Made by a program: the position numbers and the translations under genes. From positions 124,001-188,000 of the forward strand of contig JAPEUD010000050.1 in the NCBI GenBank assembly GCA_026026165.1: a stretch of DNA of 64,000 nucleotides, read 5' to 3'. Below are positions 51,601-63,926 of this stretch, piece by piece. The notes under the pieces are model-generated. The model worked only from the letters and a program-made list of their open reading frames with translations, did no database searches and was not told where the DNA came from. The DNA comes from Sarea resinae. Lineage: Eukaryota. Positions within the stretch are counted from its first letter, which is position 1. The number at the start of each line of letters is the position of its first letter.

Positions 51601-51768
51601 TCATTTCCCTAGAGTTTCCCCCATCATTATCATCACTTCTGCACCAGCCGAATCGTAAACTTCAGGCCTCGCCGGGAGGAGATTCACGACTCGCGAAGCT
51701 GGGAGCGTTCTCAGACCCGTTTCACGAGGCAACACAGACCTTGAATAAGACGCCCTCCCCATCTCAAG

Positions 51769-54144
51769 ATGGCCCCACGAATCCCCCGGCGGTTTTTCAA
51801 GCCGCTCCTCTACACCTCTGGTGCGGCCGCAATGGGCGGTGGGCTGCTATATATCCAATGGAGACCGCGAGAGATCAAGGGAGGCGAACCTGCCGCGGTC
51901 CCACCTCCTGGTTACGGAGCAGGAGGAACATTCGTGCCTCCACACTTCCCACTGGTAAAGTCTCGGGAGGAGCAAATAGCGGATCTCAAGCGGTCAGGAG
52001 GAGTCAAGCAGACCGTTGAGAAGGCCAAGGATGGCATTAATGGCATATCCGAAGGCATCTCAGAATGGCTGGGCGTCAAAGGAGACGAAACTTATGACGT
52101 TGCTGACGAGGATGGTGCTGAACCGTATGATCTTTTGATCATTGGCGCTGGCGCAACCGGCTCGGGCATTGCTCTCGATGCAGCGACCAGAGGCCTCAAG
52201 GTTGCTGTAGTCGAGCGAGATGATTTCAGCAGCGGCACGAGCAGTAAGAGCACAAAGTTGGTACATGGTGGTGTAAGATATCTTGAGAAAGCCGTTTTCG
52301 AGCTCGACTATAACCAGTAAGCCGATAATTTGCGTTGAACGCATTTCCATCTCATGACTGATTATGTGACATAGATATTCCCTCGTCAAAGAGGCATTAC
52401 GAGAGCGGAAGTATTTCCTGGATACTGCTCCGCATCTATCGAACTGGTTGCCCATCATGGTCCCCATCGACAAGTGGTACAAAGCACCATACTTTTGGAC
52501 TGGTACAAAGTTTTACGACTACCTTGCTGGATCGGAAAATATTGAGAGTTCTTATTTCCTGACCAGAAGCAAGGCTCTTGATGCCTTTCCGATGTTAAAG
52601 AAGGAAGGCTTATTTGGCGCTCTTATATACTATGGTACGTTTGGCCGCATCAGACAAACTTTTCGAAGCTGACTGTTGAAGATGGCGCGCACAATGATTC
52701 GCGAATGAATGTCTCCCTAGCAATGACTTCTGCGCTCTACGGTGCCACTGTGGTCAACCACATTGAAGTGACAGGGCTGGAAAAGGATGCGTCCGGAAAA
52801 CTGAGTGGTGCACGAGTGAAGGATCTCGTGACGGAAAAGAATGGAAGGACGCCCAAGGAGTTCAGTATCAAGGCAAAGGGCATAATCAACGCCACAGGTC
52901 CATTTACCGACTCGATCAGGAAGATGGACGACCAAGCGGTCCCTGAGATTGTTGCCCCTAGTTCGGGAGTACATATCATCTTGCCGGGATATTTCAGTCC
53001 ATCTAGTATGGGCTTGATTGATCCCTCAACATCCGATGGCCGTGTCATTTTCTTCCTCCCATGGCAGGGTAACACGATCGCCGGAACTACCGATGCGCCG
53101 ACCAAAATCAGTCAAAATCCTGTGGCTGGGGAAGAGGAAATCGAGTGGATTCTCAAAGAAATACGTGGCTACCTCGCTCCTGATATAACCGTTCGACGAG
53201 GAGATGTCCTAGCAGCCTGGTCCGGAATCAGACCTTTGGTCCGTGACCCTAATGCGAAGAATACGCAGTCTCTTGTTCGAAACCATTTGATTACCGTGTC
53301 GGATTCAGGCCTGATGACTTGCGCTGGTGGTAAATGGACCACTTACCGCCAGATGTCCGAAGAAACGGTTGATGAGGCAATCAAGTACTTTGGTCTCCGT
53401 ACAAGGGCTATTACGGATCCGCCAAATGTGAGCGGCATGGGATTTGCCAACGACGAAGCGATTCTGGATGGATCATGCCAGACGCATCGCGTCCGGCTTG
53501 TCGGTGCACACGGCTTCTCTAGGACTCTGTTCATCAACTTGATACAGCACTTTGGCATTGAGACGGATGTTGCAAAACACTTGACGGAGTCTTATGGTGA
53601 CCGTGCCTGGACCGTTGCTTCCCTATCATCGCCAACGGATAAACATTTCCCTGTTCGAGGTATCCGTCTTTCTCCTCTTTACCCTTTCATCGATGGGGAG
53701 ATTCGTTACGCGGTCCGTCATGAATATGCCCAGACTGCAGTTGATGTCTTGGCTCGACGGACGAGACTTGCTTTCTTGAATGCACAGGGGGCATTGGAAG
53801 CCTTACCGTCGGTCATTGATGTCATGGCGGAAGAGCTGCACTGGGACAAGAAGAGAAAAGATGTCGAGTGGAAGGAAACGATCAATTTCTTGGGCTCGAT
53901 GGGCTTGCCACAGAGCAAGCTTGGTCTCTCCCGAAAGCAGGTTGAGAGTGGCATCTTGAGCAAATTCCTGGCGAAGGAGGATAACACGTACGCTAGGCAT
54001 GGTAAGCTGTAACGCCCCACCTCGTCGAATATATCGAGCTAAATTTTCCATCTAGATTCCCCGGCTGATACTCTGGAGAGTGACTCAAAGTTCGAATCGG
54101 GGCAAAACCCCGTAGTTGGGACCGAGTCTCCTGTAAACAAATAG
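51769..54144 (+). CDS. GUT2: Mitochondrial FAD-dependent glycerol-3-phosphate dehydrogenase
   Basis: Arg-rich mitochondrial-type leader, then [99 protein letters not shown]. Introns 52317-52374, 52635-52681, 54002-54055. Confidence 0.96.
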
Positions 54145-55342: not shown

Positions 55343-58080
55343 ATGTCTGGCACGGGCGCCCATGCCGCGAACAGAGGTCCAGCTGTCATTGGTGTGACGA
55401 CTGCCACGATTGCCGCCGCTACTATATTCGTCTTCCTCCGCCTATGCTCTCGTGCGTTCATTGTTAAGAGGATCTCATGGGACGATTACGCCATCTTGGT
55501 AGCATGGGTCTGCATCTCGCTGGTCCGCATCAGGGTTTTGCTAATTGAGCCCTAGATTGTCTGCCTCGGCTTTTCCTTCGTCATCTGCTATGCCACCTCT
55601 GTTGGCTTAGGTCGTCATGAAAAAGCCGTACCAGCAGACTCGGAGCCAGCTCTGAGAAAGGCCGAGTTCGCCATCTCGATTCTCTACGTATGAGTCCCAT
55701 TCTGGATATCGTCGTCTTAGCTAATCTGATCAGAACCCGGCTTTGATGTCAACGAAGACCTCTGTACTGCTATTCTACCTTAGCCTATCTAAAAATGATC
55801 CAGTCTTTCGATGGGAGTCCCTGATCACTCTCATTGTTGTGAACGTTGCTGGATTAGCTCTGACCTTGCTCAATGCCTTCCAATGCCGTCCGGTCAGGGC
55901 AGCATTCCAGTATCCAACCTCCGCCACGGCACACTGCACTGATGTTGTTGTACTCTACCTCTCGTCAGCCCCGGTCAACATTCTTACGGATATGGCTATA
56001 TTTTTCATCCCGCTGCCGATCCTGACATCTATGCGTCTACCTCGAAAACAAAAGATCATCTTGATCATCACTTTTGGCGTTGTGGCATTCGTTGGCGTTG
56101 TTGATGTCATTCGAGTTGGATTCCTCCAGCAAGCATTCTCAGCTCGTCTGGAGGAGAGCCGGACTGGCAATCGCCTTTATAGCGACGATCCTGCCAGTTT
56201 GACGGACTTCTCCTGTATGTTAGATTCCTTGCCTTCGAGCACTTCCACTGATACGCTTAGGGTACGGGTCATACTCATTCATGTGGTCGGCTATTGAGGC
56301 AAACGTTGGACTCCTTATTGCCAACGTCCCAGGCCTCAAACCACTCGTGTTTCGTTTCATGCCACAAATTCTCCGCGATACTACCCAAGATAGCGACGGC
56401 ACGGGAACTAGGTCCTCTGAAGCTCAGAATCAAGCCTTAGCTGAGGCACCAGCACAGCGGTTACCTTCGGTTGCCGAGCCTCTACGCCGACCTCTCACTG
56501 GAAATAATGAGCAAATCAACGTCCTAGATTTTTTAACGACTCCAGATATGGCCTCAGCAAGTCCGGACGTGGCACTAGATAACCCAAGAAGCCGAACTGC
56601 TACCACCGTTACCCACAGTACCAAGGCCGAGGGTGCTACGTCCTTTGATTTCGTCAATATCAAAAATCCGAAAAGTATGGTGAAGATGAACGCTAAGGAA
56701 TCACTATTCCCGGTGGGTATCATAACGATCATCTTCTTTCTATGGGGCTTCGCCTACGGATTACTTCAAGTTCTGAACATGCAGTTTCAATCTCTCGAGG
56801 GTTTAAGCACCGGCCAAACCTATGGTCTCCACAGTATATACTTCGGAGCTTATCTTATTGGACCACTCACTCTGGGACGATATACACTCAAAAAATGGGG
56901 TTTCAAAGTGACTTTTATCGGTGGCTTGGCTATATACAGCTGTGGTACTCTTATCTTCTGGCCATCGGCAGTGCTGACCTCCTTTGCTGCATTCATGGTA
57001 TCTAATTTTGTTGTCGGATTTGGCCTCTCTATTTTAGAAACTGCCGCAAATCCATTCATAGCTCTCTGTGGGCCTCCAGAGTATGCGGAGGTTCGTCTCA
57101 ACTTCGCACAAGGCATTCAGGGGATTGGTAGTTTGGTATCCCAAATTCTTGCTCAGAGAGTGTTCTTCCGGACTGCCACCGGACCCGATTCTCTTACAGA
57201 CGCTCAGTGGACCTACCTTGGTATTGCGCTATTCGTCAACTTGCTTGCCCTTGCCATCTACTACATTCCTTTACCAGAAGTCTCTGACAGCGATCTCAGG
57301 GAGCTTGCATGGAAGCAGCAGTCTGAAAAGCCCATCAAGATTGGCGGAATATCTATCGTGAATATCACCCTGGCTCTAGGTGTCTTCTCTCAATTCTGTC
57401 TTATTGGTGCGCAAGAGACAATCTCCGTTTCTTTCAATACCTTTATAGGTGCGATGCATCCTAGGTAAGCTCAACTTCCCTCTGTTACAACCTTCTGCTC
57501 ACGAAAAAGCCCCACGCCTCTATCAGACTCAGATTACCTAGCCCTAGGGCACACGACATTTGCTGTTGGCCGTTTCGTTGCTATGGGGGCCTGCTTCGTG
57601 ATCAAACCGCGTTGGGTCCTGCTTTTCTTCTACATTGGAGGAGTTGTCACATCAGCGCTGACGATGACCTATACGGGAGACACCGGCATAGCAATGCTTA
57701 TCCTGGTTTTCTTCTTCGAGGTGTGTGTACCAAGCTGCACTCGCGAACAGTACTAACCTTTCCAGTCCGCCATCTTCCCTACCTTGTTCGCTATATGCCT
57801 GCGCGGGCTCGGCGCCCGGACAAAGACTGCTGCAGCCCTTCTGACCGCCGCCGTCTGCTCAGGCGCAATCTTTCCTCCCGTCGCAAACCCCATAGCAGAA
57901 AACCGAGGACCACTGTACTCCTTTTGTATTGTCGTTGCTCTTTTCTCTTTTGGATCCATCTTTCCAGCTTATCTGAATCTCGTTCCTGCGGCAAAGAAGC
58001 ATGTCGATCCAGTGTCGGAGGACACAAATGCCCTCTTTGAACAAAGCTGGCCCGGCCACCGCGAAGTTCCCCATCAATGA
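55343..58080 (+). CDS. Fusion protein: PTH11-like (fungal rhodopsin-domain) 7TM module + FucP/GluP-type MFS sugar transporter
   Basis: N-terminal half: LRLCSR..WDDY..GLGRH..TKTSVLLFY..FQCRP..NILTDMAIFFIPLP.L.SMRLPRKQK..VIR..WSAIEANVGLLIANVPGLKPL. C-terminal half: FFLWGFAYGL..YFGAY..WGFKVTFIGGL..GLSILETAANPFIALCGP..RLNFAQGIQGIG..QF..GAQE..FAVGRF..FESAIFPTLF..LG.RTK..GAIFPP. Introns 55508-55555, 55688-55733, 56215-56260, 57465-57509, 57721-57765. Confidence 0.88.
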
Positions 58081-59535: not shown

Positions 59536-60744
59536 ATGCCTCCACAGCTAGCTACGCGTCAACTGGGCAAGGACGGCCCCAAGGTCACTGCCATTGGCTT
59601 CGGCGCTATGGGTGAGTTGAGAGTACATATAGTCTTTGGAACCTAAGGGCAATGCAACTGACGAACATCTGAATGCAAGGCCTGAGCGCTTTCTACGGAA
59701 AAACTGCCTCGGACGAGGAACGGCTGAAGGTCTTCGATCGAGCTTACGAGCTGGGACAGACCTTCTGGGATAGCGCAGATATCTACGGCGACAGCGAGGA
59801 TCTCATCGGAAAGTGGTTCAAGAAGACCGGCAAGCGGGACGAGATCTTCCTTGCCACCAAGTTCGCCAATGCTGTCAACCCCGACGGCTCTCGCAAAATC
59901 GACAGCAGTCCGGAGTACTGCAAAGCGGCCGCCGAGAAGAGCTTGAAGAGGCTCGGGATCAAGACCATTGACTTGTACTATTGCCATCGTCTCGACCAGA
60001 AGACGCCTATCGAGAAGACCGTGCAGGCCATGGCGGATCTCAAGAAGTGAGTTGATTTCCATTCCTATAGTCATGCGAGTCATATCACTGACATCGTCGA
60101 CAGGGAGGGCAAGATTCGATATCTGGGATTGAGTGAGTGCTCGGCTGAGTCGTTGCGTCGTGCATATGCCGTCCACCCGATTGCCGCTGTGCAGATGGAG
60201 TACAGCCCCTTCTCGCTCGACATCGAAAGCCCCCAGACCAACCTCCTCAAAACCTGCCGTGAGCTCGGCGTGGCCGTCGTCGCTTATAGCCCTCTTGGAC
60301 GTGGCTTCATGACCGGTCAGTACAAGGGCCCCGAAGACTTCGACGAGAATGACTTCCGCCGCGTGCAACCTCGCTTCTCCAAGGAGAACTTCCCCAAGAA
60401 TCTCGAATTGGTTGAGAAGTTGAAGTCTATCGCCGAGAAGAAGGGCTGCACGGCTGGCCAGCTCACGCTGGCTTGGCTGCTGGCCCAGGGTGATGACATT
60501 CTTCCCATCCCTGGAACCAAGAAGGTCAAGTACGTCGAGGAGAACCTCGGCGCTCTCAATGTGACGTTGACCCCCGAGGAGGAGAAGAGCATCCGGCAAT
60601 CGATTGAGAGCTGCGAGATTCACGGAAGCCGATATGCCCAAGTGTGAGCGTCCTCGAAGTCCGCGCATGTTCTGTCCGGCATGATACTGACTTGATCGCA
60701 GTGCGGGTCTGTCTCTTTTCGCGGACACCCCTCCACTGCAGTAG
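59536..60744 (+). CDS. Aldo-keto reductase (AKR13/YakC-like)
   Basis: [101 protein letters not shown]. Three GT..AG introns, including 60047-60103 and 60644-60701. Confidence 0.95.
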
Positions 60745-61865
60745 AGGCGAGCTGGGCTCAAAGCGTCAAGTGAGGAGCTAGCATATGTATGGCAACGTGC
60801 CTGGATGAATAGACATGCCCAAGGACACCTTCACGTAGCATGACAGAAAACCAAATTGCAAGCTCTCCAACATATCATCTCTTGTGCGCAAGTCACCTTG
60901 GAAGTCGTAGCAATCAAGGAGAGATGTCTCATGTATCATCCAGTTCATTAGGCTTATTGGATTGGATTCTTATTGGAAGGCTTATTGGATTGGATTTGGA
61001 TTGGATCCTACCTCACGATGCAGCCCCGAGGCGATGTAGTTTCGGGAAAATAATATTCCGGCCCATGTATCCCGTCAGGTCCTGGATCGTCCGTCCCAGC
61101 AGATTCGATGGATCTGAGATGGCGAGGGAGTACAGCATATACATAGTAGAGTGACTGTCTGCGTGGTGGATGAATTCGAGGACGGGGGCCCGTGGGGATG
61201 GAAGATATATTGAAGCAAATGATGGCAATCATCGATTCCGGCCTGACAACGTGATGTCGACCAGAGGCGTTGATGGATCCGGATCATTGATCACGGATCG
61301 ATCTACGGCGGAGAATAAATATGCAAGGACGGCTGGCAGCACGGGTGGTCGCGCGACGGCCATTGGCGGAGAAATATCGAAGGGGGGTGCCGCGAAGGGA
61401 AAGACAGGCGAAGAGTGGCCGATCTCCGTCCGTGTCGGCAATTTGGCGATGGGATGGGTGAGGGAGAGGGAGAGAGGGAGAGGGAGGAGCTACGCAGGTC
61501 AAGCTAGGGAATTCATCATCATAATCTCCCTCATCCGCCCCCTCCCCATTGCCTCCACGCCGACCGAGACCGTATTATTGTCGACCATCATACGGAAAAA
61601 GCTACCAGCCACTTCCGATAGATCATCCGCTCGCTGGCCTTTGCGGGGAAAGGAAAGACAGAAAGAAACACCTCAAAGCCCTTTCGCCTTCTCAGCCTCC
61701 CTTCTCCCTCTTTCTTCTTCTCTTGCTCCGCCCAATCAACCTAGCGATGAGCTATCTCGTTGCGCATTCCCGTCAGCTGAACACCTCGCGCCGTGTTCTC
61801 TCCGAGCTTCAACACCGGATCAACGGCTTCAACATCTACGGCTGAGCGCCTTGCTCCCACGACCG

Positions 61866-63926
61866 ATGACCGTACTGGACGAAAAGCATTCCATTGCTTC
61901 TATTATGCGAAATGAACCCTCGCCGACCGACTGCCAGGTAGACTCTGGGACCGGAAGGAAGCCCGACCACCGCGCCGTTGTCGTCGTCTATGAGGATGGC
62001 CAAGAGGATATCATAGCTCTGGTGGCCGACGTCTTGGGGAAGCCGTCGCAGCTTGTGTCGACGATATCGGCGACGGAGGAGACAGGAAGCCCGGCCGTGT
62101 TCGGGATTGCGGGTGAATGCGCCAAAGACGGCCTGAGGGGACGAGCGAAAGACGTAGTCGTCGTTATCAATACTCGATGTATGGATGCGCGCAATATTTC
62201 CGACAAGACTCTCTCCGACGAATGCGATTACGAGTTCCTGTATACGCATACGCCTTTCTTGCGAAGGGACCTGACGCGCTTTCTCTCCTTTGTCCTGGGG
62301 CAAAAGAATCATCACGATGACCTGTTGAAAAAGTCCAGAACGTCTTTCATCTCTACGACATTCCCTGATGTGCGCACAGCATTATCCAATCTCGACATCC
62401 TTTCCGTCGGCTCGGATGCCGTGGAGATCAGGGTCGACCTGCTCCGAGAGCCCAAATGCGATGGCACCTTTAGTGCAGTGCCGAGCTTGGAGTACGTTGG
62501 AGAACAGGTCATGCTGCTTCGACAGCGTTCCGAACTCCCAATTATATTTACTACGAGGTGCACCAAAGAGAACGGTCGATTTCCTATGGATAACCCAACC
62601 CTATACTATGACTATTTATACAAAGCTCTGCAGTGGGGATGCGAATACATTGATGTCGAATTGTGGCTGCCCGAGGATATTAGGATGCGCCTGGCGGAGC
62701 AGAAGGGCTACAGCAAGATCATCTCCGCTTTCCATGACTTTTCAGGGAATTGGAAATGGTCGTCTCCAGAAGCACAGAGGATCTTCAAAGAGCTAGCGAA
62801 ATATGGCGATATCGCGAAGATGATTGCGCTAATCACGTCGATGAGTGAGAATTACGAGCTGGAGCTGTTCCGATCTGGCATCAAGTCCAATTACGCTCAT
62901 CCTCCCCTATCTGCCGTCAATATGGGTCCCATGGGACAAATGTCTCGAGCTCTCAATTATTTCTTCACGCCGGTCACACATCCTCTCCTACCGATGATAG
63001 CCGCGCCAGGACAGCTGAGTGCAGCAGAGATCAACGATGCTCTCCGCATCATGGGCCAAATTCCCAAGCGAGATATCTTCGCCATAGGGACTTCTAGACC
63101 TACGCCTCAATCCGTGTTCTTTGAAAAGTGCTTCAACGAGCTGGGCGTACCGCACAGTTTCGCGTGCGTCGACCGCGGCCCAAAGGGTTCAGTGGAGGCT
63201 ATCATCAAGAAACCTAACTTTGGCGGCGCCTACCTCAATCCACCACTGAGCAGTTCTTCCGCTCCTTATTTGCCTTCTTTAAGTAATGCTGCACGGTCTA
63301 TCGGTCACATAGATACCATTACCATTCATGGCGATGAATGCGAGCAATGTCCCTCTCTGACTGGCCACAATGCCTCCTGGAAAGGTATCCGCGCGACGCT
63401 CACGAGAGACTTCGTCCCTTCGGCGTATCGAGGCCGGGCAGCGCTCGTCCTATCCAGCTCCGAAGTTGACGCTTCGGCGGCAATCTTTGCCCTGCAAGAT
63501 CTCGCGGTTCAGCCCATTTACACGATCGGATTCAAGGCTCAGGGACCCTTGGCATCGATGTCGGCACTGGAACCATTGACTTCTGTTGAAGATGCCTCAA
63601 AGATTGAACAGCCCTTTGCGCTCGTCTCGGCCCTACCGCCAGAGAAGTCCCATTTCGCAGTTCCTTTACTCAAATTCTTTAGTCAAACTAGTGGCAAGGC
63701 GCGCTCGCCCTCCCCTTCGGAGAAAATGACGGGAAGAGTCTTTGTAAATCTCGCGAAGGGATCGAGTAAGGGGGACCCCGGAGCTGTTGCTGCAACTACG
63801 GGCTGGACTGTGTATGGGAGCGACGAAGTGAGCGCTTGGACGACGGTCGAGATGATGAGGTTGTTGGTCGGGCAGAATGTGCCGTGGGATTTTGTGCGCA
63901 TGGCTTCGGGAAGGTGCCTTTATTGA
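61866..63926 (+). CDS. AROM C-terminus-derived protein: type I 3-dehydroquinate dehydratase + degenerate shikimate dehydrogenase domain (AROM/QutR superfamily)
   Basis: Intronless. TSFISTTFPD..GSDAVEIRVDLL..LPIIFTTR..E.GRF..EYIDVE..KIISAFHDF..GDIAKM..AVNMGPMGQMSR..FTPVTHPLLP..AAPGQLS is the AROM-type DHQase I domain, followed by an SDH-like region (FGGA..ARSIG.IDTI..GHN..W.GI). Probable start at 61866, although the frame is open from 61170. Confidence 0.85.
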   Translation: MTVLDEKHSIASIMRNEPSPTDCQVDSGTGRKPDHRAVVVVYEDGQEDIIALVADVLGKPSQLVSTISATEETGSPAVFGIAGECAKDGLRGRAKDVVVVINTRCMDARNISDKTLSDECDYEFLYTHTPFLRRDLTRFLSFVLGQKNHHDDLLKKSRTSFISTTFPDVRTALSNLDILSVGSDAVEIRVDLLREPKCDGTFSAVPSLEYVGEQVMLLRQRSELPIIFTTRCTKENGRFPMDNPTLYYDYLYKALQWGCEYIDVELWLPEDIRMRLAEQKGYSKIISAFHDFSGNWKWSSPEAQRIFKELAKYGDIAKMIALITSMSENYELELFRSGIKSNYAHPPLSAVNMGPMGQMSRALNYFFTPVTHPLLPMIAAPGQLSAAEINDALRIMGQIPKRDIFAIGTSRPTPQSVFFEKCFNELGVPHSFACVDRGPKGSVEAIIKKPNFGGAYLNPPLSSSSAPYLPSLSNAARSIGHIDTITIHGDECEQCPSLTGHNASWKGIRATLTRDFVPSAYRGRAALVLSSSEVDASAAIFALQDLAVQPIYTIGFKAQGPLASMSALEPLTSVEDASKIEQPFALVSALPPEKSHFAVPLLKFFSQTSGKARSPSPSEKMTGRVFVNLAKGSSKGDPGAVAATTGWTVYGSDEVSAWTTVEMMRLLVGQNVPWDFVRMASGRCLY

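Follow-up and report, generated by a model that had tools for sequence, protein, structure and literature searches.

A conserved in-frame fusion of a PTH11-like seven-helix module to a FucP-type carrier in Sarea resinae and other Pezizomycotina

The PTH11-like proteins, class XIV of the G-protein-coupled receptors (GPCRs) of fungi (PF20684), are described in the available text of a review as the largest and least understood putative receptor class of filamentous ascomycetes, most of whose members have no known ligand or mechanism. Escherichia coli FucP (3o7q/3o7p) is a carrier of the fucose/glucose-galactose permease (FHS) type within the major facilitator superfamily (MFS). The yeast glucose sensors Snf3 and Rgt2, members of the sugar-porter family, no longer transport and send their signal by way of a cytoplasmic tail. 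Together with the transceptors Gap1, Pho84, and Mep2, they stand for the idea that a carrier fold can sense a nutrient, as set out in the available parts of a review of nutrient transceptors (PMC3824880). In oomycetes, GPCR-bigrams and 7TM-RGS proteins hard-wire an N-terminal seven-transmembrane (7TM) domain to a C-terminal effector domain (PMC6033456, available text). Here, we describe a gene at positions 55343-58080 (+) of a 64,000-nucleotide stretch of DNA from Sarea resinae (GenBank assembly GCA_026026165.1, contig JAPEUD010000050.1, positions 124,001 to 188,000), referred to below as the window. The gene encodes a protein, P0001, in which a PTH11-like 7TM module is followed by a FucP-type carrier. 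Sarea belongs to the class Sareomycetes of the Pezizomycotina.

P0001 resembles each of these systems in part. With PTH11-like proteins it shares a full-domain hidden Markov model (HMM) match, seven helices, a GPCR-like fold in the model of a homologue, and a distribution within Pezizomycotina, but it lacks a CFEM domain, is 25 to 33% identical to the closest stand-alone members found, and adds a C-terminal 12-helix carrier. With FucP it shares a sequence match over 12 helices, the best structural match, and equivalents of Glu135, Arg154, and Gln159; it differs by ∼400 extra N-terminal residues and by having, in a HMMER alignment, Gln429 for Asp46, Gln546 for Asn162, Phe735 for Tyr365, and Glu731 for Met361. 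The likeness to Snf3/Rgt2 and the transceptors is conceptual: those proteins are single modules without a fused 7TM domain, whereas the carrier of P0001 is an MFS_1 protein with FucP as its nearest structure. In the available text of PMC6033456, the accessory domains of GPCR-bigrams are catalytic domains of a soluble kind (PIPK, cyclase, and kinase among them), and the words “transporter” and “MFS” have 0 occurrences there; P0001 has a 7TM domain of the fungal PF20684 family, and the partner of this domain is itself a polytopic carrier. Since its C-terminal part is an MFS carrier rather than a soluble catalytic domain, P0001 falls outside the GPCR-bigrams.

P0001 is an 835-aa database protein whose record calls it hypothetical and assigns it to a metagenome-assembled genome of Sarea resinae, and it is identical at every residue to the spliced translation of the window, in which the coding sequence runs from ATG to TGA over six exons and five GT-AG introns. 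The two modules meet in exon 4 (56261-57464, +), which encodes the seventh 7TM helix, then the linker and about the first 7 helices of the MFS carrier, and whose single translation matches both MFS_1 and the tail of PF20684. Helix 7 (residues 268 to 288, WSAIEANVGLLIANVPGLKPL; 56284-56346, +), a linker of ∼115 aa, and the first carrier helices, including FFLWGFAYGL (residues 418 to 427), all lie inside a 414-codon open frame, 56224-57468; the chance that a random 113-codon stretch lacks a stop codon is ∼0.4% [(61/64)^113]. An earlier note made from the letters of the window had proposed an in-frame fusion within one exon at these positions, and splicing places helix 7, the exon, and the FFLWGFAYGL segment exactly there. 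Exon 1 (55343-55507, +) encodes the short N terminus and 7TM helix 1, exon 2 (55556-55687, +) helix 2 and the first outer loop, and exon 3 (55734-56214, +) helices 3 to 6 with the loop that carries Cys150 and Cys167, both invariant in A1, an alignment of 33 named homologues. Helices of the C-terminal half of the carrier follow in exon 5 (57510-57720, +), and the last MFS helices, a short C-terminal tail, and the stop codon follow in exon 6 (57766-58080, +). These boundaries come from splicing, complemented by a domain scan and a predicted structure for exon 1, by the predicted structure for exon 2, and by the PF20684 match and A1 columns for exon 3.

The same junction is found in other fungi. 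When longer proteins were sought with exon 4 as the query, there were 1314 matches among 8000 scored candidates, and among the best 120 of the 1314, which were characterized, all 120 (722 to 1130 aa) contain both PF20684 and PF07690. Named sources of fused homologues fall into at least seven classes (Sareo-, Xylono-, Dothideo-, Lecanoro-, Candelario-, Coniocybo-, and Eurotiomycetes), which bears out the earlier note's mention of similar fusions in other ascomycetes; fused orthologues from other classes are 48 to 57% identical to P0001. We also translated 80 related metagenome loci from stop to stop, independently of gene callers. In 74 of these, a single open reading frame (ORF) takes in both the last part of the 7TM profile and the first part of the carrier profile; the other 6 contigs begin within or past the linker, at the contig end, and are uninformative. 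The 74 junction loci form 38 clusters at 90% identity, and their linkers measure 94 to 185 residues (median, 108). We conclude that 55343-58080 is a single genuine gene, whose product is a plasma-membrane protein of two modules, and we are nearly certain that the fusion is real and conserved.

In 20 of the 80 loci (among them L024, L027, L029, and L032), the entire fusion protein is a single intron-free ORF, and some of these contigs measure 100 kb to 1.2 Mb. The window gene has five introns; thus, intron content varies widely in the family.

The N-terminal half of P0001 is PTH11-like with a GPCR-like fold, as concluded from its profile match and from a structural match to Ste2. Full-length P0001 matches PF20684 at 5.4e-52 (177.1 bits against a cutoff of 27) over residues 32 to 289 and profile positions 1 to 235 of 237, a match on the N-terminal half that the earlier note's assignment called for. 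Exon 3 by itself matches at 2.7e-30, and exon 4 by itself gives a weak match to the last 25 profile positions besides its MFS_1 match at 1.3e-8. The CFEM domain (PF05730) was not found in P0001 in the Pfam scan, and only ∼11 residues precede helix 1; in the absence of CFEM, we regard the 7TM half as PTH11-like and not as a PTH11 orthologue. In the AlphaFold2 model of P0001, seven N-terminal helices lie within residues 12 to 281, followed by a short helix at 283 to 297; the helix-7 segment identified from the sequence corresponds to a model helix at 258 to 281 and to this short helix. A hydropathy scan both over- and under-split the helices and was replaced by the predicted structure. Foldseek on the whole P0001 model returned MFS matches only and was uninformative on the 7TM half, and the fold comparison used the model of P0241, an orthologue fragment in the database that is 54% identical to P0001 (alignment A2). 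A wider structural aligner placed the fungal class D GPCR Ste2 first (Z, 18.7; 257 residues aligned; root mean square deviation, 5.4), with the runner-up at Z 15.9, ∼3 Z units lower. The top 50 Foldseek matches of the P0241 model were all GPCRs, yet only at E of ≥1.4e-3 (none at E of ≤0.001). The closest genuine stand-alone 7TM proteins are 33%, 30%, and 25 to 27% identical to the 7TM half. Mean column conservation is 0.70 in the 7TM half, 0.68 in the carrier, and 0.45, the lowest of the regions, in the linker; in A1, the 7TM half conserves buried polar residues and the Cys150/Cys167 pair.

The C-terminal module (residues 405 to 812; 56695-58008, +, spanning introns 4 and 5) is a 12-helix MFS carrier of the FHS type. 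Full-length P0001 matches MFS_1 (PF07690) at 7.7e-11, and the NCBIfam fucP model (TIGR00885) matches exon 4 at 1.8e-30, with the gluP and NagP models matching too. Among solved structures, E. coli FucP (3o7q) was the sole sequence match (1.1e-30; residues 405 to 793). An AlphaFold2 model built with A1 as input has a predicted local distance difference test score (pLDDT) of 77.9 and 7 + 12 membrane helices, the ∼19 that the earlier note had counted; 3o7p and 3o7q are the top Foldseek matches of this model, with a TM-score on the target of 0.80.

The roles of Asp46 and Glu135 in FucP are given, with reference to Dang et al., in the available parts of the transceptor review (PMC3824880). Opposite Asp46, the proton-coupling residue in helix 1, P0001 has Gln429 (codon CAA; 56767-56769, +), and opposite Glu135, a substrate-site residue in helix 4, it has Glu519 (codon GAA; 57037-57039, +), invariant in A1. 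The 166 fused proteins with a full carrier have D (90), N (25), Q (21), G (10), S (9), A (8), T (2), or L (1) at the Asp46 position; 163 of them have E at the Glu135 position, and all 166 have R as the equivalent of Arg154. On a tree of carrier domains, which is quick and whose sample of rows is weighted to divergent clusters, all 18 rows outside the fused clade have D at the Asp46 position; of the 90 rows inside it, 28 have D and 62 have lost Asp, with at least 13 changes on the tree. Loss of the Asp46 equivalent thus appears, from these alignments, to be recurrent and confined to the fused clade, a pattern that is new here. Some uniporters have a neutral residue at the coupling site. Given Gln429 in P0001 and the loss of Asp in most members of the fused clade, H+ symport is not to be assumed: of the earlier note's description of the carrier half as a FucP/GluP sugar:H+ symporter, the family assignment stands and the proton coupling is in doubt.

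Between the modules, the linker (residues 289 to 404; 56347-56694, +) is rich in serine, threonine, and proline (S/T/P) and predicted to be disordered (pLDDT of <50 at 304 to 393). It contains two conserved motifs, both new here: DFLTTP (residues 349 to 354; 56527-56544, +), in which F350 and L351 are invariant in A1, and FDFVN (residues 388 to 392; 56644-56658, +), in which D389 and F390 are invariant. By regular expression, DFLTTP was found in 114 of 120 close homologues and 158 of 233 proteins with a complete junction, and FDFVN was found in 113 of the 120 and 186 of the 233. The two share the core hydrophobic-[DE]-F-[LV]-[TN], and FDFVN is followed by Met399, which is ≥90% conserved in A1. 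Two or three tandem copies of a DFLTTP-type motif are present in the linkers of P0003, P0005, and P0008 (A1), which suggests a repeated docking site. In a second subgroup (P0381, P0400, P0433, and P0351), motif II has the variant YFGF in place of FFDF, and the Asp46 position is mostly Asn. The pattern R[ILVM]P[ST] was considered as a family linker motif and rejected; it occurs in just 57 of the 233 proteins and is therefore specific to a subclade.

Searches with either half among shorter proteins returned mostly fragments of fused genes. Short, apparently unfused matches >45% identical to either half were rejected as evidence of split genes: P0245 and P0247 continue into the carrier, P0433, P0449, and P0401 start with the end of helix 7, and many others start at an exon edge. 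The closest clearly unfused carriers are fungal proteins named “glucose/galactose transporter” (Sordariomycetes) or putative L-fucose permease (P0197, P0203 to P0205, and P0393); they are of FHS type and 35 to 36% identical to the carrier of P0001, but they lack both the linker motifs and the 7TM module, have a short N-terminal tail of ∼30 residues, retain the Asp46 equivalent, and fall outside the fused clade. A Trichoderma reesei putative L-fucose permease, perhaps one of these proteins, is reported in the available text of a 2025 paper (PMC12370193) to be induced by the fucose regulator FUR1. When 50%-identity representatives were searched exhaustively with the N-terminal half of the carrier, 150 proteins were listed, of which 134 were new; among these, 72 match both domain profiles and 62 match the carrier only, many of the 62 being visibly N-truncated. 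The carrier tree (quick search, LG+G4) was built from 108 full-length carrier domains, in which every one of the 36 rows lacking a 7TM match was kept, as were 24 fused proteins that are named and the fused representatives; other fused rows were left out. All 72 fused rows lie in one clade of 90 rows (SH-aLRT, 99), and the 18 rows outside it are all unfused. From the homologue, metagenome-locus, half-only, and tree results, we conclude that a single ancient fusion took place.

A PTH11-like half, 45% identical to that of P0001, is joined to a piece of the middle carrier helices in P0252 from Purpureocillium lavendulum (Sordariomycetes), annotated as “ferric-chelate reductase”; the name looks wrong, and the model looks mis-spliced or degraded.

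RNA data came from one RNA-library run (X1), which contained 5% of the sampled words. In a 161-nt RNA contig, exon 2 directly follows exon 1, intron 1 (55508-55555) having been removed at GT..AG, with 0 mismatches, and a 346-nt contig spans 57937-58080 in exon 6 and extends past it, with 4 differences. Thus, the 5′ (7TM) part of the gene is spliced and the 3′ (carrier) part is present in RNA.

How might such a protein work? The N terminus of MFS carriers is cytoplasmic, and the topology of both folds is established. Because helix 7 should end in the cytoplasm and the MFS carrier begins there, the linker would be cytoplasmic and the two modules would lie side by side in one membrane, with the Cys150/Cys167 loop outside and helix 7 with the linker inside. 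The carrier half may still bind a monosaccharide, since the equivalents of Glu135, Arg154, and Gln159 are retained. The Asp that drives proton-coupled uptake in FucP is lost in P0001 and in most of the family, for which reason the carrier of P0001 would be a facilitator or a ligand-binding sensor rather than an active proton symporter. Coupling of the carrier's state to signaling or to regulated trafficking would fall to the tethered 7TM module together with the linker motifs. We put the probability of this explanation as a whole at about 0.55. Its central part, a predicted sugar-binding carrier with regulatory or signaling coupling to the 7TM half, has roughly even odds, and if the two are coupled, a true receptor-type output, that is, a transceptor, would be the minor outcome. 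In its strict form, a hard-wired transceptor in which a mostly uncoupled FHS carrier would act as a sugar-binding front end, read by the 7TM module and the linker motifs and relayed to G protein/cyclic AMP or to adaptors, we think it unlikely.

Several observations weigh against this explanation. Transport, ligand binding, and G-protein coupling are plausible but predicted functions only. The fucP score of 106.5 bits, obtained with exon 4 alone, lies under the equivalog cutoff of 280.4 (TIGR00885/NF007524); because this partial score is under the cutoff and Asp46 is missing, P0001 is not demonstrated to be a FucP equivalog. The family is mixed at the proton-coupling position, with Asp retained in 90 of the 166 fused rows of the broader count (54%). 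Glu731, in helix 10 (FFFES), stands opposite Met361 of E. coli FucP and shows ≥90% conservation in A1; its equivalent is also present in unfused fungal relatives, and the short FHS-type protein P0233 has Met there. Glu731 could replace Asp46 as a protonation site, in which case loss of Asp46 need not end proton coupling. The predicted TM-score of the model (pTM, 0.75), with the larger domain making up about half of the length, would give no more than a hint of a fixed two-module arrangement. Neither RNA contig covers the junction; they are short and of low depth, and one run yielded both, so that, although no transcript end was seen, they permit no judgement on transcript continuity, internal starts, or transcript ends, and one continuous mRNA is not demonstrated in Sarea resinae. 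The carrier tree is a quick search under a simple model, and a few rows labeled unfused nest within the fused clade. These nested, unfused or N-truncated rows look like truncated models or secondary losses, since P0449, at least, opens on the final part of helix 7. Finally, in one annotated genome the gene is divided in two within the linker (P0243/P0158), which is either a true split or pseudogene or a break of annotation or assembly. These two proteins come from Gyalolechia ehrenbergii and have consecutive locus tags on the same 215,691-bp contig; P0243 comprises the 7TM half and most of the linker, and P0158 comprises the carrier half, with the break just ahead of FDFVN.

A simpler account is that P0001 is an ordinary sugar transporter whose PF20684 module is passive, serving as an anchor or in folding, sorting, or quality control, and whose linker motifs are sorting or endocytosis signals. 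Regulated transporter tails are often S/T/P-rich and disordered, as the linker is, and the core residues of the carrier are conserved. Most PTH11-like proteins are without a demonstrated receptor function, and the available text of the review describes even Pth11 itself as having an unknown ligand and an unknown mechanism. Yet the 7TM half is conserved like the carrier, down to its buried polar residues and Cys pair, which exceeds the needs of an anchor, and repeated loss of the Asp solely in the fused clade would be unexpected in a plain uptake system. We therefore regard the passive module as possible but doubtful.

It is also conceivable that one locus makes two products, a free carrier and a free PTH11-like protein, through an internal start at Met399 or cleavage of the linker, the fusion being a device for co-expression. 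The highly conserved Met399 stands just before the carrier; the database models of P0328, P0334, and P0353 start inside the linker; the annotation of P0243/P0158 splits the gene there; and a disordered linker is accessible to proteases. Against this, models that start in the linker can be explained as truncations by ORF callers, the frame is open in all 74 informative loci, and FDFVN lies upstream of Met399, a conserved motif implying that coding constraint continues through the linker; this makes two products improbable. That a gene-model or assembly error has read two neighboring genes together might be suspected of a metagenome-assembled genome whose junction is not bridged by an RNA contig. 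But the junction lies within a single stop-free exon and recurs, colinear, in every one of the 74 informative independent loci, with the whole protein in one ORF in 20 of them, and both domains are present in the best 120 of 1314 homologues, which come from many annotators. The artefact reading, which the earlier note had already dismissed from the continuity of the exon, is effectively refuted. Coupling between a sugar-binding carrier and a regulatory 7TM half is the explanation that we prefer.

Database domain tables show the architecture, and so do protein names such as “MFS monosaccharide transporter-like protein” and “Rhodopsin domain-containing protein,” and the sequence family is therefore not new. 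Its recognition as a conserved fusion of a receptor-like module and a carrier with these properties appears to be new. In the available text of a 2026 review of fungal GPCRs, PF05730 and PF20684 are given for class XIV, and MFS and transceptors are not mentioned; that of a 2025 paper on fungal GPCR classification has no such fusion and refers to MFS only as an expanding gene family; and that of a 2017 Aspergillus genomics paper refers to PTH11 only as an HMM target. A full-text search, the coverage of which excludes subscription journals and supplements, found no paper describing a PF20684-MFS fusion and no functional work on one, in agreement with the earlier note, which knew of no functional characterization.

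An ancient conserved fusion provides a concrete, testable functional link between the PTH11-like class and nutrient transport or sensing. The family is present in tractable Aspergillus species, which makes knock-outs, domain deletions, and uptake assays feasible. If the pattern holds, the losses of Asp would form a natural series of carrier-to-sensor or symporter-to-facilitator transitions and would bear on the origins of transceptors. If the transceptor reading is true, the fusion would be a Rosetta stone: Pezizomycotina have dozens of stand-alone PTH11-like proteins that are orphans, and many of these would act in trans with membrane transporters and would not be classical ligand-binding GPCRs.

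Upstream of the fusion gene, ORFs at 51745-52317 and 52582-54009 (51745-54009, +) carry DAO and DAO_C domains and are probably one intron-bearing gene for a FAD-dependent glycerol-3-phosphate dehydrogenase/oxidase-like protein. Just downstream, a 395-codon ORF (59646-60830, −) has no Pfam match at 0.001. It is followed by a 923-codon ORF (61155-63923, +) with a type I 3-dehydroquinase domain at residues 398 to 630 and no further Pfam match at 0.001. Neighbors resembling glycerol-3-phosphate dehydrogenase and carrying a dehydroquinase domain do not suggest a sugar-utilization cluster. The 923-codon ORF is large for a stand-alone dehydroquinase.

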